Shown here: positions 2,643 through 14,144 of the stretch, piece after piece
How positions within the stretch are numbered: the stretch's first letter is position 1
Layout of the letters: each line of letters begins with the position of its first letter
Virus record (IMG/VR): IMGVR_UViG_3300042374_001687
Location: 1-64,000 of that record
Direction: 5' to 3' (one strand)
Source of the DNA: a virus
DNA length: 64,000 nt
Notes under the pieces: generated by a model
Databases searched by the model: none
What the model was told of the DNA's origin: nothing
The model's input: only the letters and a program-made list of their open reading frames with translations
Program-made: the position numbers and the translations under genes

Positions 2643-2807
2643 ATGAGATTTTCGGAGTGGGTGGAATTAAGGGAATCGCGGGATGCTTGCTATCACAAGG
2701 TGAAGAGAAGGTACCAGAAATGGCCGTCGGCCTACGCCTCCGGGGCGTTGGTCAGGTGCCGCAAGGTCGGAGCGAAAAATTGGGGAAACAAGTCGAAAAA
2801 GAAGTGA
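2643..2807 (+). CDS. Small basic T4-like phage protein (DACYHKVK...WPSAYASGALV motif) with CTS-like start; not in ORF track
   Basis: MRFSEWVELRESRDACYHKVKRRYQKWPSAYASGALVRCRKVGAKNWGNKSKKK; TAGATA 4 nt upstream. Confidence 0.8.
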   Translation: MRFSEWVELRESRDACYHKVKRRYQKWPSAYASGALVRCRKVGAKNWGNKSKKK

Positions 2808-2809
2808 AC

Positions 2810-3115
2810 ATGAAGAACGCAGATTTAAAAAATCCTATGCCCGGTTCGAGTTTCAAGGATTGGTTGAACGAGGGAACGTTTGATTTAGAAAAGGAGCGTG
2901 GTCTTAGAGGCTGGTTCGACAGGAACAACGGCAAGGGATGGGTGGACTGCAAGGCGAGCAGGAAGGGCAAGATAGTTCCATGCGGCCGGGAGAAGGCAGG
3001 CCGGGGCACGGACAGGAAGTATCCCGCGTGCCGGCCGACACTTTCGGCATGCAACAGCGTGGGCAAGAGGAGAAAGAAGGACTCCAAGCCCATTTCTTGG
3101 AAGGAAAAGGAATGA
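2810..3115 (+). CDS. Small basic Cys-containing phage protein (GLRGWF...WVDC...PCGR...YPACRP)
   Basis: Likely start 2810 or 2837 inside track ORF 2639-3115; SFKDWLNE motif. Confidence 0.7.
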   Translation: MKNADLKNPMPGSSFKDWLNEGTFDLEKERGLRGWFDRNNGKGWVDCKASRKGKIVPCGREKAGRGTDRKYPACRPTLSACNSVGKRRKKDSKPISWKEKE

Positions 3116-3127
3116 TTCAAGGGGCCA

Positions 3128-4009
3128 TCAGTAGACGCTCTCCTTCATGATGCCGAGGAGATACTTGCCGTAGCCGCTATTGTCAAGCGCCGTCGCCAGG
3201 GCCTCGAGTTGCCTGTCTTCGATCCAGCCGTTGCGCCAGGCGATCTCCTCGGGGCAGCAGATCTTCAGGCCCTGCCGCTTCTCGAGAGACTGGATGAACT
3301 GCCCGGCCTCGAGCAGGCTGTCGTGGGTGCCGGTGTCGAGCCAAGCGTCGCCGCGGCCGAGGATCTCCACCCGCAGGCCGCCCCGCTCGAGATAGGCCCG
3401 GTTGATATCGGTGATCTCGAGTTCGCCGCGGGCCGAGGGGCGGATGCCGGCGGCGATGTCGACCACCTGCTCGTCGTAAAAGTAGAGGCCCGTCACCGCA
3501 TAGCGGCTTCGCGGCCGTCGAGGCTTCTCCTCCAGCGACTTGGCACGGCCGGAAGCGTCGAACTCCACGACGCCGTACCGCTGCGGATCGGACACGGGAT
3601 AGGCAAAAACTGTGGCTCCGGCCGGATGCTTGGCGGCCGACCGTAGCCGCTGGGCAAGGCCGTTTCCATAGAAGATGTTGTCGCCTAGAACAAGTGCCGA
3701 AGGGCATCCGCGGACGAAATCGGCGCCGACGACGAACGCTTGTGCGAGCCCCTCCGGCCGCGGCTGCACGGCGTAGTCAATCCGCATGCCCCAGCCCGAA
3801 CCGTCGCCGAGCAAGTCGCGGAATCGCGGCGTATCTTGGGGCGTCGAGATGACGAGCACGTCGCGGATGCCAGCGAGCATTAGGGCGCTCAACGGATAGT
3901 AGACCATCGGCTTGTCGTAGACCGGCAGCATCTGCTTGGAGACGCCGAGGGTCACGGGATGGAGCCGGGTACCGGAACCTCCGGCCAGGACGATACCTTT
4001 ACGATGCAC
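3128..4009 (-). CDS. rfbA: Glucose-1-phosphate thymidylyltransferase (RmlA/RfbA)
   Basis: [53 protein letters not shown] 4009 gives 293 aa. Confidence 0.97.
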
Positions 4010-4046
4010 CGAAGAGCCTTTGTTGTGATTTTGACTTGGCCGGCAT
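3999..4046 (-). pseudogene. Truncated [13 protein letters not shown]-type phage gene remnant overlapping the rmlA start
   Basis: AGGAG RBS + [15 protein letters not shown]; stop falls inside rmlA codons 3-4. Confidence 0.6.
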
Positions 4047-4053
4047 GTTGCTC

Positions 4054-4341
4054 CTATTGGTTTTCTTCCTTGGCGAACCAAATGGTGTACCTTATCTCCC
4101 TCTTGTTTTCCGTGACATCCCATAGAAAGGTGTCGCATTCGTTGATTCTGGATATGAAGTCCACTACGAACATGGTCGTGTCCTCGGAAACGGCCGTCTT
4201 CCTAATGTCACCCCCTCCTTCCTTGTGTTCTTTTACTATTACACGGTGTGCTCTTGTCGGCCTAGGCTCTGCGTCCCTTGAAAGCAAGTATGCGTTGCAC
4301 ACGAGAGACACTAACAGCAATATGGCATAAAGGTTCTTCAT
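4054..4341 (-). CDS. Hypothetical protein with N-terminal signal/TM
   Basis: Hydrophobic N-terminus; AAGGTGG RBS. Confidence 0.6.
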
Positions 4342-4420
4342 TTTTCCACCTTGGTTGTTTTGGTTTTATCTAGGGGTTTTGGGGAAGATTATGGATGATT
4401 GCGACCTATATTACTGAAGA

Positions 4421-5818
4421 ATGATCTATCTGCTTGAACCAAGTTATGTTTTGGAGGCCACTGTCGCGGAATACTTTTCGTACAGCCGTCTTTCCCCCGA
4501 ATTCGGCGACGAGCTCACGGGGGGAGAAAAAAAGGTGGTGGTTTACGACTGCTTGGACAAGGATTTTGACGGGAACTTGGCTGAAAGGATACTGAATGGC
4601 GCCAACACGACGGTATTCGTGGTCTTGAACGACACGAACTTGGGCTTCATCCAGTCCAAAAGATTCAAGATGTACAACCACAAAGGGCCAATAGGGGTTA
4701 ATCCCGATGAGTTCAAGAAGAACTTGATTCACAAGTTGGCATGGTTGTTGGATCCCGAGGACGACTTTGATCATGTGCTGTATCTGGACAGCAACCCGAA
4801 CTTGCTAGAAAGGTACTACAACACTCCTTGGGCTAGGGAGAACAACATATCCGACAGACAAAGGGCATATCACCACTACTTGCTGCATGGTTCGGACTGG
4901 TTCTTCGGGTCAAAAGAGAACTTGCCTCCCGAAAAGATACTCAGCATGGAGGTCAACGACAATTTGAAAAAGATCGTTAACTCGGTATGTCCGGAGATTA
5001 AAAAGGAGATCAGGCAGAACAGGCTGGAGTGTGTCTGTTTGAACATGACTTCGAGCGAGAAGGACGGCTACGAAACCTTCGCGGGCAGAATTCTAGCAAG
5101 CACGAACAAGGAGTCGGCGAGGGACATCGACTTCGTGATAGTCGTGAACAATGACAATTTCAAGCCTGATGTGGGGGCGTTGAAGAATTTGTTCAAGAGC
5201 GTCGTTGTGATCTCGTTGAACTTGACGGCCGAGCAGGACATTTATGTTAGACCCGGCTTGGAGGATGAGTTCTTGCAGAGGAATTCCGTTCCGGACTACG
5301 GGCTCAAGGCCGGACCTAACATAATGTTCTTAAGGTCTATGGAATTTTTGAGGAGGTACAACACCTCCTTGCTGGTCGAGACCGACTGCCATTTTGGAAA
5401 GGGCTGGCTTGGGTCTCTTCGCCGTTACACGAGGGATTCAAACGGATTTCTCGTGTCTGGCTCTACTTACGACGGGGTTGTATACACAAAGGCCAACACC
5501 GCAAACTTCAACCACCTCAACGGGGTCGCACTTTACGCAACTGGAGACTCCAACTTCCAGGCTCTAATGAGGTGTTTCGATGGCTTTTTGAAAGAGCATG
5601 TGAGGACGATGCCGCATCTGGCCTATGATTTCGGCATGAAGTTAATGGTGGATTTTGGCCTAGACCACTCCGCAGATAAGATGATCTGGAACTTCATCAA
5701 CAGAAACATCGTAGTCAACAAGCACATTTTTAATTTCAGCACCTTGGAAGACAGTTCTCTGGACGAGGGCGAAATAAGATCTATCTACAACTACGCGGTG
5801 CTTCACAAGAAGGGCTAG
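4421..5818 (+). CDS. Glycosyltransferase-like hypothetical protein
   Basis: LVETDC (DxD-like), HLNGVALY; FD..Y...N...HY...G module. Confidence 0.5.
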   Translation: MIYLLEPSYVLEATVAEYFSYSRLSPEFGDELTGGEKKVVVYDCLDKDFDGNLAERILNGANTTVFVVLNDTNLGFIQSKRFKMYNHKGPIGVNPDEFKKNLIHKLAWLLDPEDDFDHVLYLDSNPNLLERYYNTPWARENNISDRQRAYHHYLLHGSDWFFGSKENLPPEKILSMEVNDNLKKIVNSVCPEIKKEIRQNRLECVCLNMTSSEKDGYETFAGRILASTNKESARDIDFVIVVNNDNFKPDVGALKNLFKSVVVISLNLTAEQDIYVRPGLEDEFLQRNSVPDYGLKAGPNIMFLRSMEFLRRYNTSLLVETDCHFGKGWLGSLRRYTRDSNGFLVSGSTYDGVVYTKANTANFNHLNGVALYATGDSNFQALMRCFDGFLKEHVRTMPHLAYDFGMKLMVDFGLDHSADKMIWNFINRNIVVNKHIFNFSTLEDSSLDEGEIRSIYNYAVLHKKG

Positions 5819-6435
5819 GCCAGCAACTCCTTCATGGCCTCTAGTTTGGTTTTGCCGTTCTTTTGGCAGTGGGCTTGGCTGCAATGCACGATGCCCCCAT
5901 TGTTGGGATAGTCGACGACCGTCCGCAGTTTCTTGAATTTAATCTTGCCGCTTTCGAGCATTATCATGTCGGAAGTGTGAGGCCTGCCGTCGTGTAGGAT
6001 GAACTCGTCCTTAATGGCGCAAAAGCCTCTGCAAACCTCGAGGTACTGTTCAGGGGTTCCATAAACTACGCATGGAACATGTCCTTGGTAGACGGTGAGT
6101 TGTGTTTCGTCGCGGTCTAGATGATAGACTCCGTTGTTTATCACATCGTAGTCTATCATCAAACCTCCGCCCGTTTGGACCATCGCCAGCCATCTTATGA
6201 AGCAACTGTAGTCGTACATGGACGGGTTGACTGTGGGCAGTTCATTTATTATCTGGCTGTACTCGCCAAAGAATTCGTGCTTTTCCGCAACGGAATGATC
6301 AAGGACGATCAGTTCCCAGCCGCTCCTCTTCCAGGACTCCTTGCACAGGTCTAGGAGTTCTTTCTGGGTAGATTTTCTCCTGGGGCAATTGTTTATGGCG
6401 TCTATTTCTTGGTAGTAGGTGTAGCATTTATTCAT
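5815..6435 (-). CDS. DxD glycosyltransferase-like protein
   Basis: SW..SGWE, RWLAM..GGLMIDYDV (GT32-like pattern). Confidence 0.55.
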   Translation of the reverse strand: MNKCYTYYQEIDAINNCPRRKSTQKELLDLCKESWKRSGWELIVLDHSVAEKHEFFGEYSQIINELPTVNPSMYDYSCFIRWLAMVQTGGGLMIDYDVINNGVYHLDRDETQLTVYQGHVPCVVYGTPEQYLEVCRGFCAIKDEFILHDGRPHTSDMIMLESGKIKFKKLRTVVDYPNNGGIVHCSQAHCQKNGKTKLEAMKELLA

Positions 6436-6437
6436 TT

Positions 6438-7310
6438 TTAGCAGTACGACATCATAAGCTTTATCTGGTCGTCCGTTATGAAGTTTTCTTCTTCTGTCGG
6501 ACGGTAAGTCATATTCTCTTTTCTCACGACCTCGTCCTCAAATATAGTGGCATTGAACCTAAACCCGTAGTGCTGAGCGTCGAACTTGGTGATGGGGGTT
6601 GAGTTTCCGGAAAGAAAGTGCTCCGTGGATGCCTGCCTTAGGAAATTAAAATCCACAAGCCTTTTGTATATGCCGAGACGCTCCGCCATGATTTTGAATG
6701 TCATCATGCTGATGATCGTGGTCGGGTGGTTGATGGTAGAGAACATTTTGATATTTTGGAAGTTTTCGTTGAAGAAATCGTTTACGGGTTGGAAGTCGTT
6801 CTTTTCAATCGAACGCTCAAGCCGCAGTCTGGAGTTGGCGTGTATCTCCTTGATTTGTCCGATCTCGTCTTCCGAACCGGAGAAGTCGAACTTCTTGAGC
6901 TCGAGGCGGATTATATCGTGAAGGTACATGAAAAGGACATAGTTAGGAAGCCTTATTTCCTCCGGGGAAGTCCCGAACTCATCAAAGAAGTTTTTATCAC
7001 ATTCCCTGCAGGTGTTGAGTATTGAATTGTTTTTAACGCTTTCCGTAACCATTGTCTTGGTTTTGGGAAGTATATTTTTTATGGATTCCTTGGGGAATGG
7101 GAAGAGGGGGTCGGAGTTCCACTGCGTGCTCCAGAATGGAACATATATGCAGAAAATATTGAGATCGGGCCTGAGCAGGCTCAGGTAGTACATGATCGGG
7201 CTGAGACGGCAAGAGCCAATGAAAAGCACATTTTCTTCGCCTGTTCCCTTGTAGGCGAGGAATTCGCTCTTGCTGTTAATGCTGTCTAGATCATTTGGCG
7301 TTTTTATCAC
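6438..7310 (-). CDS. WcbI-like polysaccharide biosynthesis protein
   Basis: IGSCR and MFSTINHPT resemble the WcbI GNCQ / LFxTxNHP motifs. Confidence 0.55.
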   Translation of the reverse strand: MIKTPNDLDSINSKSEFLAYKGTGEENVLFIGSCRLSPIMYYLSLLRPDLNIFCIYVPFWSTQWNSDPLFPFPKESIKNILPKTKTMVTESVKNNSILNTCRECDKNFFDEFGTSPEEIRLPNYVLFMYLHDIIRLELKKFDFSGSEDEIGQIKEIHANSRLRLERSIEKNDFQPVNDFFNENFQNIKMFSTINHPTTIISMMTFKIMAERLGIYKRLVDFNFLRQASTEHFLSGNSTPITKFDAQHYGFRFNATIFEDEVVRKENMTYRPTEEENFITDDQIKLMMSYC

Positions 7311-7376: not shown

Positions 7377-9113
7377 ATGATCAGTTTTAAATTATGGATG
7401 GAAGCGGAGGAAGCGGAGAATGTCTATAATGTCCCCCAAGACAGAATGCCGGTCATCAACAAGCAACTTGAAAAGGTCAATAGGCGTGCGGCAAAACTTG
7501 GCTTGCCCCCCGTGAAACTAATAGAATTGGGCAGGTTCACCAAGGAGATAAAAAATCAGGACGGCAGGAAGTGGGACAGAGAATACTTGAGGCTGAGGGT
7601 GGATGGGGAAGCCCCTAAGGTCAAGGGGTGGACATTTGTGGCCAGAATAATGCATTCGGAGGGCGGGAACATAATAAACACCGCCCCGGGAATGAGTCCC
7701 CCTCCCGCGAAGTACAGAACGGCGGAGCCGAACTGCGAGCACTGCAAGATGAACAGACGCAGAAACGACACATTTGTCATGAGGAGCGAGCAAGGCGAAT
7801 ACAAACAGATAGGCAGAAATTGCCTTGCGGACTTTTTGGGCAGCGCAGATCCGGCGGAACAAATAGGCTTCTTCGGCGACTGGAATAGTGTCGTGCAGTC
7901 GCTAGGAGACGAAGACAGCGATTACTACGGTGGTGGTTCGGGATCCAGAACCATAGAGATAGTGTCGTACTTGACGGCGGCCTTGGCTGTTATCCGCAAG
8001 TTTGGATTCGTACCCAGATCCAAGTCTGAAGATCTGGGCAAGCCGGCCACTTCTTATATTCTGGATTCTATTTTCTTTGGAATGAGCAAGGATGATCAAA
8101 AGCTGAGGGACGAGGTGCGGGCCGTCAAGAAGCCCGACGACGAGGACAAGGCTAGGGAGATTTTGGACTGGGCGAAGTCGCAGAAGAACCAAGAGGATGT
8201 GAGCGACTACTTGTGGAACATAAGCGCGGCGGCCGAGAGGATCGTGGTTGACAGCAAGACGGCGGGTCTTGTCGCCAGCATTCCGGCCGCCTACCAGAGA
8301 GCCATGGACAAGAAGGTAGAAAAAGAGAAGGTTGAAAAGGAAGCAGAATCCGCTCCCGAAGTGACGCTTAAGCCTAAGGATAAATTTGAAGGGGTCTTGA
8401 CCGTGATTAAGACCCCCAGGTGGAGCAACGACTACGGCCTCACGGTCTTGCACATAATGCAAGACGAGCATGGTAGACTTTACAAATGGAAGGCGTCCAA
8501 CGAAGACATACCGGTCGGATCCAAAGTGCATATCAAAGGAACGGTGAAGGCTGTAGGTCCGGACAGCTATGCGGGTGGAAAGATCACGGTGGAGCTGACC
8601 AGGTGCAAGGTTGTCAAAATGCACATGGGCAAGGAGCATCAGGCAATAATTGATCAGAAACAAGGGCTCATTGACGCTTTTGAATCCATAGTGGGATCAG
8701 ACTTGCCCGCCATTACGACAAGTGGGCAGCCGGTTTCTCCGTACCATGTTAGAGAGCACATATTTGGAGATATGCTGCGAGAGAAACTTGCTGCGGCCGG
8801 GGTCAAATACGAGGAATGGAGAGCTTTGGTTTCTTCGTGGGATGTTATGTTTTTGTCTAAAGATCAAAACTTTGAAAGAACCAACTCTGCAGAAGATTTG
8901 ATAAGAAAAATAAAAGCTTCAAAGGACGCTCCTGAGGCCGATGTCGCGGTCAAGGGACTCCAGATATTTGCAAGCATGGTCCAAGCTAACCAACAAGCCC
9001 AAGAAATAATCAAAAAACTTGAGGGGATATACAAGGTAGAGGGTGATTATTCTGGAAGGGTTGTGCATAGAGAATCCTTCTTGGGGTGGGTGGCAAAGAG
9101 AGAGTTAATTTAA
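7377..9113 (+). CDS. Phage protein with Zn-ribbon and probable OB-fold; CTS-like start
   Basis: CEHC...QIGRNCLADF; C-terminal beta-rich IKGTVK...VELTRCK; GGAGG RBS. Confidence 0.6.
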   Translation: MISFKLWMEAEEAENVYNVPQDRMPVINKQLEKVNRRAAKLGLPPVKLIELGRFTKEIKNQDGRKWDREYLRLRVDGEAPKVKGWTFVARIMHSEGGNIINTAPGMSPPPAKYRTAEPNCEHCKMNRRRNDTFVMRSEQGEYKQIGRNCLADFLGSADPAEQIGFFGDWNSVVQSLGDEDSDYYGGGSGSRTIEIVSYLTAALAVIRKFGFVPRSKSEDLGKPATSYILDSIFFGMSKDDQKLRDEVRAVKKPDDEDKAREILDWAKSQKNQEDVSDYLWNISAAAERIVVDSKTAGLVASIPAAYQRAMDKKVEKEKVEKEAESAPEVTLKPKDKFEGVLTVIKTPRWSNDYGLTVLHIMQDEHGRLYKWKASNEDIPVGSKVHIKGTVKAVGPDSYAGGKITVELTRCKVVKMHMGKEHQAIIDQKQGLIDAFESIVGSDLPAITTSGQPVSPYHVREHIFGDMLREKLAAAGVKYEEWRALVSSWDVMFLSKDQNFERTNSAEDLIRKIKASKDAPEADVAVKGLQIFASMVQANQQAQEIIKKLEGIYKVEGDYSGRVVHRESFLGWVAKRELI

Positions 9114-9142
9114 GTTTATTTGGCATCTATCTAAATAGTCCT

Positions 9143-10018
9143 ATGCAAAGGTTTCACGAGTTCGCCAAGGACAAGTCAAAAAAGAAGGTGGTTCTGGTTG
9201 TTGGGTCGGCCAGAAATTCCGATTGCTGTCCAAATGAGAAAAGCAAGACCCACAAGTTGGCGGATAAGATCCGTGCGGAATTTTCCGAACTAGTTAATTT
9301 TGAGGTTGTAGATCTTTCCGTCAAGTGCGACGGGGTTAATGTCCAACCTTGCAAGGGCTGCGTCAGCACATCTAACATGCACTGTAGGTGGCCGTGCGAT
9401 TGTTATGGAAAGCAGAGCGATCCGAAGGATTTGATGCACAAGGAGGATGTGTACCGAAAACTGGAGGCTTGCGACGGTTTTTTTGTATTAACTCCTATAA
9501 ACTGGAGTTCGTGCTCTAGCGTGGTCAAGAGTTTCTTTGACAGGCTTGTGTGCGCCAACCTAACAATCACTGCAAATGAGGCCGTGGAGATATTCGGCAA
9601 GGATCACATAAAGGACTCCAAGGCGACTAGGGAGGCGGAAAAATCCGGAAAATACAACGAAATGCTTAGGAATCATCTGGAGGGGAAGGTCGCGGGTTTC
9701 TTCGCTCATGGCAACGATGGAGGGGCGGATTATATTGAATTTGCCAAGAAGAAGACAAAGGCCTTGCCGGTCATCCCAGAAAGCATGAAGGAATATGAGA
9801 AGTCACATGGCAAGGAGGATTCTAGCAAGGTTCTTGACCCTCTTGTAAGGCAATGCGTTTATTCCGGAATAAGGGTTCCCGACGATTGTGTAAGGGTCGT
9901 CACATATGGATTCGGCATTTCTTACGGTGATTCAAACGATTTGTTTGAAAAGGAAGCGAAGCTTAAAAAAGATGCCACAGAAGTATTTGAATCTTTTTTG
10001 GGGCATTTGAGCTATTAG
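9143..10018 (+). CDS. Iron-sulfur flavoprotein / NADPH-dependent FMN reductase family
   Basis: VGSAR, PCKGCVS...CRWPCDC, TPINW, KSFFDRL, GKVAG. Confidence 0.85.
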   Translation: MQRFHEFAKDKSKKKVVLVVGSARNSDCCPNEKSKTHKLADKIRAEFSELVNFEVVDLSVKCDGVNVQPCKGCVSTSNMHCRWPCDCYGKQSDPKDLMHKEDVYRKLEACDGFFVLTPINWSSCSSVVKSFFDRLVCANLTITANEAVEIFGKDHIKDSKATREAEKSGKYNEMLRNHLEGKVAGFFAHGNDGGADYIEFAKKKTKALPVIPESMKEYEKSHGKEDSSKVLDPLVRQCVYSGIRVPDDCVRVVTYGFGISYGDSNDLFEKEAKLKKDATEVFESFLGHLSY

Positions 10019-10084
10019 AATCATTCTGGGTCTGTTTTTAGATCATAATGTCATTATAACCTGAGCACCACGAGGCCAAGCGCA

Positions 10085-10591
10085 ATGGACATCGTTGAAT
10101 TCTATAGAAAAAACAGCGTTGAAAAACAGTTTGATGAAGAGTTTTATTTATCACAAAACAATGATTTAAATAAATTCTACCAGCCATATTGCAAAAACAA
10201 TAAAATTACAGAAAGACAGAGGCTTTTTTATCATTATGTCTTTTTTGGCAAGAAAAATGGAATGTTTAAAAACAAGGATGAGAAAAAAAGGCACAGAGAA
10301 GAAAGGCTGGCTTCTCGTAAAAGACTAAGGGGCAGAGACGAGGAAATAGACCTAAGAGGTCTAGAAAAATATATCATTGAGGAAAATATGGACGGATATG
10401 TGGCTGATCACAATAAGCACTATTTCATAAACCGATATGCTCATAAGGTACTTGAATCAATGTCTCAAGAAGATAAAGAAAATTATATCATAAATAAGAT
10501 AACTAAATCTTTTGAAGACATGAACAATATTGAAGTGCAAGAAAAAATAAGTGAAAAATACCCCGAAATAATAATGGAAGAGATAGATTGA
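10085..10591 (+). CDS. Hypothetical protein (AT-rich island)
   Basis: ORF; shares the FD..Y..N...ERQR..HY...G module with 4421-5818. Confidence 0.6.
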   Translation: MDIVEFYRKNSVEKQFDEEFYLSQNNDLNKFYQPYCKNNKITERQRLFYHYVFFGKKNGMFKNKDEKKRHREERLASRKRLRGRDEEIDLRGLEKYIIEENMDGYVADHNKHYFINRYAHKVLESMSQEDKENYIINKITKSFEDMNNIEVQEKISEKYPEIIMEEID

Positions 10592-10788
10592 ACGCAGATT
10601 CTGTTGAGCAATATAGGGAAAAACTTGAAGATGTTAATTTTTTTGTATTAGAAACCCAAATGCAATTGTGCATCAATCCTTATTTTTTTGAATTGATCAA
10701 AAATCCATACGACAAAGAATCATATGTTTTACAAAAAGACGAGATAATCTCAGAGTTGATAAAATTGCATGAAGAAAATGCACAATAA
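10588..10788 (+). CDS. Hypothetical protein
   Basis: Overlap-coupled ORF. Confidence 0.45.
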   Translation: MNADSVEQYREKLEDVNFFVLETQMQLCINPYFFELIKNPYDKESYVLQKDEIISELIKLHEENAQ

Positions 10789-11698
10789 ATTTGCTTTTTT
10801 TGGTGCGTCTGTAACTAAACAAAAAAAATCGTACGCCGATTTTTTGATGGAAATGATCCAAGAAAATGAATACGGCAAGTTCGGATATGGATCAATGCAT
10901 TTATCTGATGCGGGCGTTTGTTTCATAGATCATGTTGTAAGCTACAATCCCGATGTTTGCTTCATAGACTGGTTCTCAACTTCTAAGACCAATTACGGTG
11001 ATGGAATATCCGTATATCTTGATTGCTTGGTGCTCAAGCTTTTAGAAAATAACATAAAGCCTGTCTTTTTATTGTTTCCGATATCGGAGATGCTCGCACC
11101 CAGAGTTGAAATGTATGATACTGTTAGAAAATATGCATTAAAGTACGCCATTCAATGTTTGGATATAAACGAAAAGAGCAAAAAAGAAGAAATTGATATT
11201 TCAACAATAATTAAAGACTATGTTCACACTACTGATTTTGGGGGCTATTATTACGCATCCAAGATACTTGAACTTTTAGGAGAAGATTTTTTTAACAAAA
11301 AAGATGCAGTTTCCAATTGTGTCCGACCCGAAAAAAACAAGTACTATGGAATACTAAAAAAAGAAATGAATATAGAGGTAAAAAAATTCATTAATTTTTT
11401 AGTTGAGGACGAATTGATAGGAATATATCAAACAATTGGGCCTTATTCTAACAATGTCAATATATTTAAAGAAGGTAAACTCATACAGAAATGTCCAATA
11501 TGGGATTGTTGGTGCCATTACGAAAGAGATACATTCAAATTGTGCATAAAAGAGCCCGGTCGTTATTTTATAGAACTAGCAAATGACATTGACAAGTCAG
11601 CATGCAAGGTTCAAAAAAATTGGGGGGATTTTGTCAATGCGTTGAATTTGAAGGATGCTTTTTACACATCTAATTTTTTGGTTGAAGATTATGAATAG
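10769..11698 (+). CDS. SGNH/GDSL hydrolase family protein
   Basis: FFGASVT (block I) and DYVH (DxxH). Confidence 0.7.
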   Translation: MKKMHNKFAFFGASVTKQKKSYADFLMEMIQENEYGKFGYGSMHLSDAGVCFIDHVVSYNPDVCFIDWFSTSKTNYGDGISVYLDCLVLKLLENNIKPVFLLFPISEMLAPRVEMYDTVRKYALKYAIQCLDINEKSKKEEIDISTIIKDYVHTTDFGGYYYASKILELLGEDFFNKKDAVSNCVRPEKNKYYGILKKEMNIEVKKFINFLVEDELIGIYQTIGPYSNNVNIFKEGKLIQKCPIWDCWCHYERDTFKLCIKEPGRYFIELANDIDKSACKVQKNWGDFVNALNLKDAFYTSNFLVEDYE

Positions 11699-12473
11699 TA
11701 AAAGCGGCAACATACTTAAAATCAAGTGCCCAGACGGTTTTGCAAACCAGTTAAGATTGTCTTTGGCTGCAAACTTGCTCGTTGAAAAGAAGATGGCCGA
11801 TGAGGCGGTTCAAGAATGGGTCTTGAACAACCACAATATCGTTGATTTTTTGAAGTTTTTCCATCCTCTTCCAAATGTAAGATTCTCAAAATTGATGGAC
11901 GAGGAAGATCTGATAGCGACCCAGTCTTTTGAGTACATGACCAGGCAACTAGATGTTACTTCAATTGTAGATTTGTTCAATGAGGCGTATGGACACTTAA
12001 GGTTGAAAAATGATTACAAAGTGATAATTCAATCTTTTATAGACAAATTTGAAATTGGGAATTGCATAGGCCTACATTTAAGAACTGGGTGCAAGACGGC
12101 CTTGCTTTTCTCGGAAAATGGAAAGGGAAGAAGCAGGCCAATTCCTCATGGTGCAATAATAAAGTTTTTAACGACCAACGATAAGAAAATTTTTTTGGCA
12201 ACAGATAACGCAGAAACACAAGATAAATTTTTCAATGTCTTCAAGGAAAGAATAGTTTTTTTTGAAAAAATCAAGGAGGGAAAGGAAAAATTTGAAGGTA
12301 CTTATGATGAAAAAAAGGTCGTCAGATTCGCCGGAGACATGCACACTATAGCGGATTTTTATATCCTACAGAACTGCCGGTATTTTATAGGATCTAACGA
12401 AAGCTCCTTTTCGTTGATGATAAATTACATACGGAACAATGAATCGGACTATAAAATTGATGGAGTTTTATGA
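11691..12473 (+). CDS. Fucosyltransferase-like (NodZ/O-FucT type)
   Basis: DGFANQL, IGLHLRTG, IFLATDN, SSFS motifs. Confidence 0.75.
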   Translation: MNSKSGNILKIKCPDGFANQLRLSLAANLLVEKKMADEAVQEWVLNNHNIVDFLKFFHPLPNVRFSKLMDEEDLIATQSFEYMTRQLDVTSIVDLFNEAYGHLRLKNDYKVIIQSFIDKFEIGNCIGLHLRTGCKTALLFSENGKGRSRPIPHGAIIKFLTTNDKKIFLATDNAETQDKFFNVFKERIVFFEKIKEGKEKFEGTYDEKKVVRFAGDMHTIADFYILQNCRYFIGSNESSFSLMINYIRNNESDYKIDGVL

Positions 12474-13231
12474 ATATTTTTTTCTGCATAGTTAATAACG
12501 GATACAAATATTTTGCTCTTAATTTCCATAAAAGATGGCTTCAACTAGATATAGAAAAAAAATTAGTTTTTATTTGCACCGATGAAATTTGCTATGAGGA
12601 ATTGAAAAAAGAAGGTGCCGAGTGTAATCTTGTTCAAAACAAAAATTTGTCAACTAGTTTTCACGGATGGACAACGAAAGAATACAAGAAAATAGTTTTC
12701 AACAAATTATTTTTGACCAAAAATTTCATTGAGAATCATCATAAAGATTATCCTTTTATTACTTATGTTGATACCGATATGTGGGTCAATTATGACTTTA
12801 CCAAAGATTTGGATGTTGTACTGTGCAAGAGCAATTTTGATATTATATTTCAAGATGGAGAAGATTACCTTGAAAATATTGATGACTGCTCCGTCTTAAG
12901 TTCTGACGGGTCAATAAGCAAGGTGAGGAATTGCATCAACTATTGCACAGGATTTATGGTGTTCAAAAGCAGAGAAAAAGACAAAATTTTTAATCTGCTA
13001 TCTTATGACAAAGAAGATATTGAAAAAAATATTGGAAATCAAATTTACATAAATAAAAAAATAGCTGAATTGAATATGAATGTGTGTTCTTTGCCTAAAA
13101 AAATTATGCCGAACTTTTCAACTTCTTTTTACTACAAGAATCTAGAAAGATACTGGATGTTGCATTATACTTATATTGTGGGAAAAGAGAAGATATATTA
13201 CATGAATAAAAATTCTCATTGGATTATTTGA
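12470..13231 (+). CDS. Nucleotide-diphospho-sugar transferase (GT77-like)
   Basis: YVDTD, IFQD, CTGFM, NQ, HY motifs. Confidence 0.7.
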   Translation: MNIFFCIVNNGYKYFALNFHKRWLQLDIEKKLVFICTDEICYEELKKEGAECNLVQNKNLSTSFHGWTTKEYKKIVFNKLFLTKNFIENHHKDYPFITYVDTDMWVNYDFTKDLDVVLCKSNFDIIFQDGEDYLENIDDCSVLSSDGSISKVRNCINYCTGFMVFKSREKDKIFNLLSYDKEDIEKNIGNQIYINKKIAELNMNVCSLPKKIMPNFSTSFYYKNLERYWMLHYTYIVGKEKIYYMNKNSHWII

Positions 13232-14144
13232 TCTTTACCTCAGTAGACTCCTTGACAAACAATAGAAATGCCTTAAATGTTCTTTCAAATTCTCTGGTAG
13301 TCTCTAAGAGTGTGGGTTTTCTCTGGTGTGTGCCGAATTCGGCGACCATTGCGAATGCCCCGTTTCGGTGATACCAGTCTATCTCCGTTCCGTATATGGG
13401 CCTGTTGTACAACTCGGAGGCCTTTTTCAAGTCGTAATTGGACAGGGCACACATCTGTGATGAGATCCTTTCGTATTCCGCAACGTTAGGATTGTCTTTT
13501 TTGCTATCTCCCCAAGGAATGAGATAGACGCGACCAAATGTATGCCCCGCCAAAACACTGTCCGGCTTTATCTTCAAGAATAGGTTCTTGAGGTTTTCAA
13601 CCGGTGATACGGAAATTTTTTCGGGGTTTTTGAGCGTGGGGAAGTCCCTGTTGGGATCTTTTCCTTCCACCCTCCTGCTGTCCGGGTAGCTGTCAGGCGA
13701 CACGACAGGAACGAAGTATATCGTTCTGCTGTTAACAAGTTCGGTGATGGCCTCGTCCTCTCCATAGGCGGACAAAAGCTTCCCTGCATAGGCCATCACC
13801 GTGCTCGTAGAAAGAGGCTCGTTGCCGTGTATGCACGCGGTCACCAGAACCGTCTTGTCGCTCGGTGCCAGTTTGTTTCCTATTTTTAAGTAATATTGCT
13901 TGAGGCCGTCGGAGGTCTTGCCGTAGGACGACACCTCTGCGAGTTCGGGAGCGGCTGACTCCCATTCCTTGATCGTAGATAATATCTCGTCGTAGGTCTG
14001 ATGGGCGTATAGGTGCCGCTCTATTGCCGGGCAAGCCGGAATCTTCGGGGCCGGGTCTTCCTTGACATCAGCCCTCTGGACTGTCCTATAGAGCAGCACC
14101 AGCACCAGGCATAAAGCCATGGCACAAACAACGCCTTTTAACAT
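13224..14144 (-). CDS. M14 zinc carboxypeptidase family with N-terminal signal anchor
   Basis: IHGNE, PVVSPDS, NRDF, GHT, catalytic AEFG. Confidence 0.9.
   Translation of the reverse strand: MLKGVVCAMALCLVLVLLYRTVQRADVKEDPAPKIPACPAIERHLYAHQTYDEILSTIKEWESAAPELAEVSSYGKTSDGLKQYYLKIGNKLAPSDKTVLVTACIHGNEPLSTSTVMAYAGKLLSAYGEDEAITELVNSRTIYFVPVVSPDSYPDSRRVEGKDPNRDFPTLKNPEKISVSPVENLKNLFLKIKPDSVLAGHTFGRVYLIPWGDSKKDNPNVAEYERISSQMCALSNYDLKKASELYNRPIYGTEIDWYHRNGAFAMVAEFGTHQRKPTLLETTREFERTFKAFLLFVKESTEVKIK

Follow-up and report, generated by a model that had tools for sequence, protein, structure and literature searches.

The stretch of DNA analysed here, referred to as the window, is 64,000 nt long and corresponds to minus-strand sequence of an IMG/VR viral contig of 121.8 kb that is estimated to be 24% complete; genes for tape-measure, baseplate-wedge, and tail-fibre proteins are present in it. 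A first-pass annotation of the sequence had reported a gene at 3128-4009. The ORF is real, and its strand is corrected here to the minus strand. It is a host-derived rmlA gene for glucose-1-phosphate thymidylyltransferase (882 nt, 293 aa, GTG start, TGA stop), bordered on both sides by phage genes on one molecule. The left border of this slot is a conserved phage gene of 95 aa with an N-terminal hydrophobic segment (4054-4341, minus strand), which is the first gene of the minus-strand unit, and the right border is a conserved, convergent phage gene of 101 aa (...YPACRP...SWKEKE*; 2810-3115, plus strand). An AGGAG Shine-Dalgarno sequence, identified by reading the sequence (4051-4055, minus strand), shares bases with the TAG that ends the 95-aa gene and serves a chimeric 15-codon ORF (3999-4046, minus strand), in which codons 1-13 correspond to the 5' remnant of a DUF3008 gene and the last codons and TAA to the tail of a host rmlD. 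The 5' junction between phage and host sequence is at 4007-4010 (minus strand). Downstream of rmlA, ATGGCC (3123-3128, minus strand), whose A also belongs to the rmlA stop, corresponds to codons 1 and 2 of host rmlC and marks the end of host-derived DNA, and a 7-nt spacer, CCTTGAA (3116-3122, minus strand), separates it from the stop of the convergent gene.

The rmlA product aligns with known thymidylyltransferases over its full length. The Pfam profile NTP_transferase (PF00483) matched residues 4-240, the whole catalytic core, with an E value of 3.6e-75, and the product matched the solved RmlA structures 5IDS (E 7.7e-141) and 1FXO (E 2e-138), the latter ungapped with residues 1-293 on 1-293. 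The GGxGTRL loop is retained as GGSGTRL, and residues G11, R15, K25, Q26, D110, K162, and D225 are kept with the P. aeruginosa numbering unchanged; the catalytic and binding roles of R15, K25, D110, K162, and D225 we take to be those given in the P. aeruginosa RmlA literature. The phage protein and P. aeruginosa RmlA/RfbA (EC 2.7.7.24, PDB 1FXO) thus have in common the 293-aa length, the ungapped alignment, the loop, and these residues, whereas the phage gene is solitary with no rmlB, rmlC, or rmlD nearby, and starts with GTG downstream of a remnant ORF. These matches indicate that the gene at 3128-4009 encodes an intact RmlA, the enzyme activity of which is predicted.

In base composition and codon usage, rmlA differs from the phage genes far beyond chance. 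Its GC content of 65.2% stands against 45.8% for the whole window, with 55% and 49% in flanks of 300 nt, and the shift is located no more than ~40 nt from the ORF ends. Arginine is encoded in rmlA by 24 CGN codons and 1 AGR codon, as opposed to 131 CGN and 454 AGR codons in 27 phage genes (Fisher p 2.5e-14), and isoleucine by 14 ATC and 0 ATA codons, as opposed to 157 ATC and 435 ATA (p 1.4e-8). The codon tests and GC values agree with the first-pass annotation, which had described a GC-richer gene with CGN arginine and ATC isoleucine codons among AGR- and ATA-using neighbours and had placed the shift at the ORF ends. CpG depletion was tried as the source of the phage's AGR preference and rejected, with CpG observed/expected at 0.87-0.93 and phage-branch changes not concentrated at CpG.

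The contig as a whole (G000) has two codon-usage domains, with the boundary ~2 kb beyond window position 1 (contig ~68.5 kb). In the structural half, of which the window is part, AGR accounts for 78% of the arginine and ATA for 57% of the isoleucine codons; the other half relies on CGN and ATC, has hardly any ATA, and carries DUF932, PcfJ, ATP-dependent ligase, and DUF2201/VWA plus AAA genes. Since CGN and ATC codons are common in that other half, host-like codons alone are no proof of foreign origin. Genes for tRNA-Arg(CCT) and tRNA-Arg(TCT) are encoded in the CGN/ATC half and fit the phage's own AGR-rich usage, and the two domains may represent an early/late split tied to the phage tRNAs.

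The upstream ORF begins ATG CCG GCC AAG TCA AAA TCA CAA CAA AGG CTC TTC GGT, and the 13 residues encoded, an N-terminus that had been recognised from small phage proteins in the first pass, were found exactly in 24 IMG/VR viral contigs. The 24 viral proteins continue MVHAYQKGE...DFAxTKHKGLP and were assigned by Pfam to DUF3008 (PF11450), with the consensus followed through Gly13. The family covers 57 positions including ...DFAxTKHKGLP, of which the upstream ORF has the first 13 residues only, and a search of the contig with PF11450 gave no match at E ≤ 1, hence neither an intact DUF3008 gene nor its body. By its residues, the upstream ORF reads as a DUF3008 remnant and not as a member of the family.

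At the 5' junction, bacteria read ...CTGCTCGCCC ATG CAC CGT AAA GG..., with rmlD ending ...HAP* on the TAA, and the phage reads ...AGG CTC TTC GG T GCA TCG TAA AGG. Phage ...CTCTTCGG is joined here to host TGCAYCGTAA..., with homology to L131 and L002 beginning at TGCA. Since homology starts at TGCA, the junction lies within the start codon, where a host ATG has become a phage GTG. The upstream ORF had been seen to end within the rmlA start, which is correct in that its TAA (4001-3999) falls in codons 3-4 of rmlA (GTG at 4009-4007); we add that this TAA is the host rmlD stop. Because the remnant ORF ends at the host rmlD stop, the overlapping stop/start geometry is a legacy of the host operon.

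At the 3' end, phage and bacteria share ...GTC TAC TGA TGG CC and diverge immediately after. The sequence TGATGGCC is the overlap of the rmlA stop and rmlC start, identical in L131, L132, L133, L002, and L005, and in all close bacterial loci ATGGCC is where rmlC starts (M-A). The phage has CCT TGA after ATGGCC (MAP*) and then the antisense of the conserved convergent 101-aa gene, the stop of which is 7 bases on. ATGGCC after the rmlA stop is probably an rmlC scar and not the continuation of a phage gene; its earlier reading as the original continuation (LFG-MA) is not supported, given the host overlap and the phage frame, which ends at MAP* and gives way to the antisense of the neighbour. It is possible that ATGGCC acted as microhomology. 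The earlier statement that no host DNA flanks the gene was nearly right, with five host-like bases, TGGCC (3127-3123), present after the stop, and its central proposal, that rmlA was captured start-to-stop and joined to the beginning of a small phage gene, holds almost exactly, the small gene being DUF3008.

The proteins closest to the phage RmlA are P0003, P0004, and P0123, with 92-93% amino acid identity, from bacterial metagenome contigs; P0123 is an NCBI protein labelled Planctomycetota bacterium MAG. All three loci are rmlB-rmlD-rmlA-rmlC operons followed by ABC-transporter and glycosyltransferase genes. The nearest DNA is the Planctomycetota-type rmlA of L131 (91.8% identity, 72 of 882 sites differing), which is of the kind found in the rmlB-rmlD-rmlA-rmlC operons of freshwater Planctomycetota contigs. 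A STAS-domain gene adjoining the donor-like operon has named relatives confined to Planctomycetia/Planctomycetota MAGs. In a maximum-likelihood tree, the phage RmlA fell within a bacterial clade (98/96), in a subclade with P0003 and P0123 (99/93), with a long tip of 0.066 compared to 0.011-0.023. JGI sample 3300059473 contains both a 64-kb contig of the phage and the bacterial P0003 contig. None of ~400 sampled Planctomycetota species representatives had a protein more than 75% identical to the phage RmlA, and a pattern scan of GTDB species representatives gave a best match of 75%. As the Planctomycetota representatives reach only 75%, the donor genus is absent from those sets. A further protein, P0002 (385 aa), is a bacterial RmlA with an internal duplication and was set aside as not a relevant fusion.

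The donor clade of rmlA was in this way traced to Planctomycetota-type operons at 91.8% nucleotide identity, and the expectation that the captured gene would point to a host was borne out as a usable lead, Planctomycetota, through the nesting, the operon context, and the MAG label. Judged from these sequence relationships, a donor-type Planctomycetota bacterium is probably the phage's host or a close relative of it; the gene donor need not equal the present host. Lake phages have been predicted to infect Planctomycetes (PMC9040852). The lead to freshwater Planctomycetia is a concrete one for a family of huge lake phages that are uncultured and for which hosts have seldom been assigned.

We consider it very likely that a huge tailed freshwater phage took rmlA from a high-GC Planctomycetota-type bacterium, and that the gene was trimmed, replaced the cargo of the slot, and became an established auxiliary gene. 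The donor layout would have been rmlD-rmlA-rmlC with overlapping stops and starts, of which only rmlA survives in the phage together with two host scars, namely the rmlD stop in rmlA codons 3-4 and the first two rmlC codons. Host DNA would have been fused to the Shine-Dalgarno sequence and first 13 codons of a phage DUF3008 gene, with loss of the remainder of DUF3008, by illegitimate recombination (at most microhomology-level) followed by trimming, and not by a clean one-step insertion. The resulting cassette sits between the two conserved convergent border genes, in a slot that is hypervariable; after capture rmlA remained under purifying selection, with its catalytic residues kept, and drifted toward the AT-richer phage composition. 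Both junctions can be placed to within a few bases and the operon of the donor is known, and the locus illustrates how an operon-internal gene can be cut out, trimmed, and re-plugged into phage signals.

The slot was compared among related phages. Orthologues of the 95-aa gene are present in L137, L138, and L140 (73-76% identity) and in L142 (71% by tblastn), orthologues of the 101-aa gene in L090-L094, L137, L138, L140, and L142, and further large phage contigs, including one that measures 385.6 kb, have homologues of the 465-aa neighbour (56-60% identity). When the window was aligned to the relatives, flank homology ended where the two border genes end. At the orthologous slot of relatives L137, L138, L139, L140, and L142, rmlA is absent and other cargo is present instead: L137, L138, L139, and L142 have a 36-aa hydrophobic/membrane ORF of 111 nt (MEKGLEILGF... 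or MQKGLEILGF...), and L140 (2649-3095) has a 148-aa Mtd_N-domain protein of the major tropism determinant N-terminus type. The differing cargo between conserved border genes indicates that the slot is hypervariable, and by this comparison acquisition of rmlA is lineage-specific. No long-diverged rmlA occupies the site in the relatives, in agreement with the capture proposed in the first pass. A simple insertion inside a gene, as had also been proposed, is not supported by the locus, since the DUF3008 remainder is absent and the slot of relatives holds the different 36-aa ORF. The slot history is one of replacement within a hypervariable slot, probably in more than one step, with the 36-aa ORF as the probable ancestral occupant; the CTTGAA of the spacer may be a relic of that ORF (...TAC TTG AAC...), a 6-nt match. 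Searches of IMG/VR for an empty allele found nothing through the 465-aa and 95-aa neighbours and five distant loci without synteny through the 101-aa neighbour, and the exact left-junction pattern had no match among metagenome contigs, a set in which the phage's own and nearby records may be hidden.

A slot of this kind could also have received the gene by way of another phage. The DUF3008'-rmlA fusion might have formed in another phage and only then been carried into the slot, already assembled as a cassette, by recombination between phages, which would be consistent with the hypervariability of the slot and its three unrelated cargos in relatives, with a commonest allele of the relatives that is the 36-aa ORF and not DUF3008, with the possible CTTGAA relic, and with the widespread occurrence of DUF3008 genes among other phages. 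However, no other carrier of the DUF3008-rmlA fusion-junction pattern was found in the viral contigs searched, where records closest to this genome may be hidden, and among the rmlA homologues found in at least 240 IMG/VR contigs, the nearest phage rmlA is only 63% identical; blastn of rmlA to GenBank phages gave a best match of 71.5% identity. Transfer of a finished fusion therefore seems somewhat unlikely to us, and capture from a Planctomycetota-type bacterium with trimming and replacement of slot cargo remains the preferred reading.

Large T4-like phages have hyperplastic, or hypervariable, regions. The slot is like these in being fixed between conserved genes and filled with unrelated cargo in different lineages; unlike them, it displayed no flanking repeat or promoter-stem-loop element in a shallow look. 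One could speculate, at low probability, that the slot is a dedicated cargo-exchange site of this family of phages in which the conserved DUF3008 Shine-Dalgarno sequence and ~13 codons act as a reusable translational landing pad. If this were true, host genes without their own ribosome-binding site, which is often the case in planctomycetes, would be expressed at once by termination-reinitiation, and such phages would have a general route for ORF-precise domestication of host genes.

Other features of the slot's surroundings vary among these phages. A DUF5872-like ORF (2643-2807) and the ...YPACRP... ORF (2810-3115) lie in different frames in the window; the pair is split also in L137 and L140 and is a single fused gene in L138, L142, and L092-L094; a frameshift or a natural division of the gene would account for the separation. 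IS605 OrfB/TnpB-like (Cas12f1-like_TNB) genes are located 1-4 kb from the slot in L137 (3142-6411) and L138 (338-2618), and L142 has a 302-aa ORF with a Cys-rich C-terminus ~1.6 kb from the slot (5016-5924). None of these genes is present at the corresponding place in the window.

To place the capture in time, substitutions in rmlA were polarised with L002 as the outgroup, which assigned 52 to the phage branch and 12 to the bacterial branch (binomial p 5e-7). GC-to-AT changes made up 44/52 on the phage branch and 4/12 on the bacterial branch (p 8e-4), and 37 of the 52 phage-branch changes were at third positions; a coarser polarisation with more distant outgroups gave GC-to-AT fractions of 39/50 and 11/28. 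The GC3 of rmlA, 0.82, lies between that of the donor clade (0.93) and that of phage genes (0.55), roughly 30% of the way toward the latter. Compared to L002, dS is 0.42 and dN/dS is 0.10. By these measures rmlA is a selected resident gene of predicted function that is partly ameliorated toward phage composition, a process of which it offers a worked example. Some of the substitutions on the phage branch may have arisen earlier, in a bacterial donor that is unsampled.

These values bear directly on the earlier proposal of a very recent, precise capture, by which rmlA would have entered an intact DUF3008 in situ and in one step between Gly13 and Met-Ala. Some DUF3008 members do read ...QQRLFGMALAV... 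(L097, L104, and L111), the composition of rmlA is still far from that of the phage (GC3 0.82 compared to 0.55), and two assemblies made from different samples have the gene without a single difference. On the other hand, TGATGGCC corresponds exactly to the host rmlA/rmlC overlap, the frame after ATGGCC stops (MAP*) and is followed by the antisense of a syntenic gene with no DUF3008 body, and the 52 AT-biased phage-branch substitutions are ~4x those of the bacterial branch, with the nearest bacterial DNA 8% diverged. The term very recent does not fit a gene with its nearest DNA at 91.8%, a 52 to 12 excess of substitutions, of which 44/52 are GC-to-AT, and a GC3 that has moved from 0.93 to 0.82. 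We judge a one-step capture of this kind to be quite improbable, and the older, trimmed acquisition from a Planctomycetota-type donor is preferred.

The integrity of the assembly was assessed with independent sequence. L089, from another ENA assembly and a different sample, matches the window at 99.95% identity across 12 kb, with identical rmlA and junctions, and the 64-kb JGI contig has the gene order of the window. Logan contigs from lake runs not flagged as source cross both junctions without mismatch; X4 (2024) provides a 62-kb contig (record 16) over 3901-4500 and one of 550 nt over 2700-3152, and X5 (2020) provides contigs (records 17 and 23) over 2700-3162 and 3908-4058. Record 1 of X1 is also junction-crossing. 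This run evidence consists of assembled unitigs and not raw reads, and unitigs break inside rmlA where its k-mers are shared with community bacteria. A chimera, in which reads of a bacterial rmlA would have been wrongly assembled into phage sequence, might be suspected from those breaks, from rmlA k-mers common to many community bacteria, and from depth spikes at 3310-3370 and 3859-3980, but it is made extremely unlikely by the identical junctions in L089 and the JGI contig, by the error-free Logan contigs over both junctions (X4, X5, and X1), and by an intact ORF under purifying selection with phage-specific substitutions throughout. A mis-join had been named in the first-pass annotation as a possible source of the arrangement; at the unitig level, both junctions are spanned by contigs from independent runs. 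All six differences between the window and L089 over the 12 kb cluster within 330 nt (2272-2602), in the gene at 1903-2508 and its upstream region.

That rmlA is an old phage gene, passed from phages to the bacterial clade or lost by relatives, is hardly credible even with homologues in at least 240 IMG/VR contigs, because the phage is a single long tip in a bacterial clade whose members P0003, P0004, and P0123 lie in a conserved rmlB-D-A-C operon, the rmlD and rmlC scars lie in the phage and not the reverse, and the phage-branch bias is directed away from bacterial composition.

The acquired gene has the geometry of a translationally coupled pair, with the stop of the upstream ORF 8 nt past the rmlA GTG, and a weak AAGG is present 8 nt upstream of that GTG. 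The predicted RNA fold of the start region was no better than shuffles (z -0.16), and no RNA structure masking the rmlA start was found by this comparison. A promoter and terminator scan gave site counts not above shuffles. Translational coupling, which had been proposed from the arrangement, is therefore compatible with the layout but is qualified by the gene's own weak AAGG and the ordinary folding of its start region. We infer that rmlA would be co-transcribed with the 95-aa gene, and that ribosomes would load at the strong AGGAG of the remnant ORF, stop at the TAA that follows the GTG by 8 nt, and then reinitiate at rmlA; the weak AAGG may allow direct initiation on rmlA as well. Bacterial rml operons have an 11-nt rmlD-rmlA overlap and a TGATG at rmlA-rmlC, and the phage retains both the TAA 8 nt downstream of the start and the terminal TGATG. 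In contrast to these operons, the upstream cistron in the phage is a 15-codon DUF3008/rmlD chimera under a phage AGGAG, and rmlC is cut to two codons.

Putative genes for glycan modification lie beyond the 95-aa gene. A 465-aa protein (4421-5818, plus strand) is a predicted GT-A fold glycosyltransferase with an extra N-terminal domain (AlphaFold2 pLDDT 85); Foldseek searches with its model returned glycogenin/GT8, GT6, and TarS/TarP matches at E ~1e-5 (1.5e-5), and E320/D322 (E-x-D) are invariant. It had no Pfam or PHROG match, and members of its family come only from large phage contigs. An RgpF identity for this protein was considered and rejected, as the Protein Atlas score of 0.86 is below the usable level, and only the GT-A fold was retained. 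A WcbI-like gene (6438-7310) and an O-FucT-like gene (11655-12473) are also present, and we propose a glycan-modification island that starts at 4421-5818, runs to ~7310, and perhaps includes 10769-13231. The counterpart island in L138 has pyruvyl- and sulfotransferase genes.

Family searches for rmlB, rmlC, and rmlD had no match on the 121.8-kb contig, which is ~24% of the estimated genome. RmlA would make dTDP-glucose from dTTP and glucose-1-phosphate during infection, and its most likely role is to raise the supply of dTDP-glucose, which would feed host RmlB, RmlC, and RmlD and the adjacent island of phage glycosyltransferases. RmlA and RmlB have been reported as auxiliary genes of virulent coliphages (PMC6969025) and rfbA has been reported in prophages (PMC11515562), so phage carriage of rmlA as an auxiliary gene is already known, and what is new here is a separate instance. 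Like those auxiliary genes and morons, the gene described here is a host-derived sugar-nucleotide gene of foreign composition, of a kind acquired independently in many lineages. It differs from known phage rmlA/rfbA genes in being a separate acquisition, at most 63% identical to the IMG/VR rmlA genes found, with a donor clade traceable at 92% nucleotide identity.

Two further features were observed in the window. A low-GC island at 9900-13250 (29-36% GC compared to ~45%) contains four genes, one of them O-FucT-like, and is probably a second foreign cassette from an AT-rich donor. An FMN-reductase-like gene (9086-10018) is intein-free in the window, and its counterpart in the 385-kb relative (L137, 16570-17416) contains an intein with LAGLIDADG.
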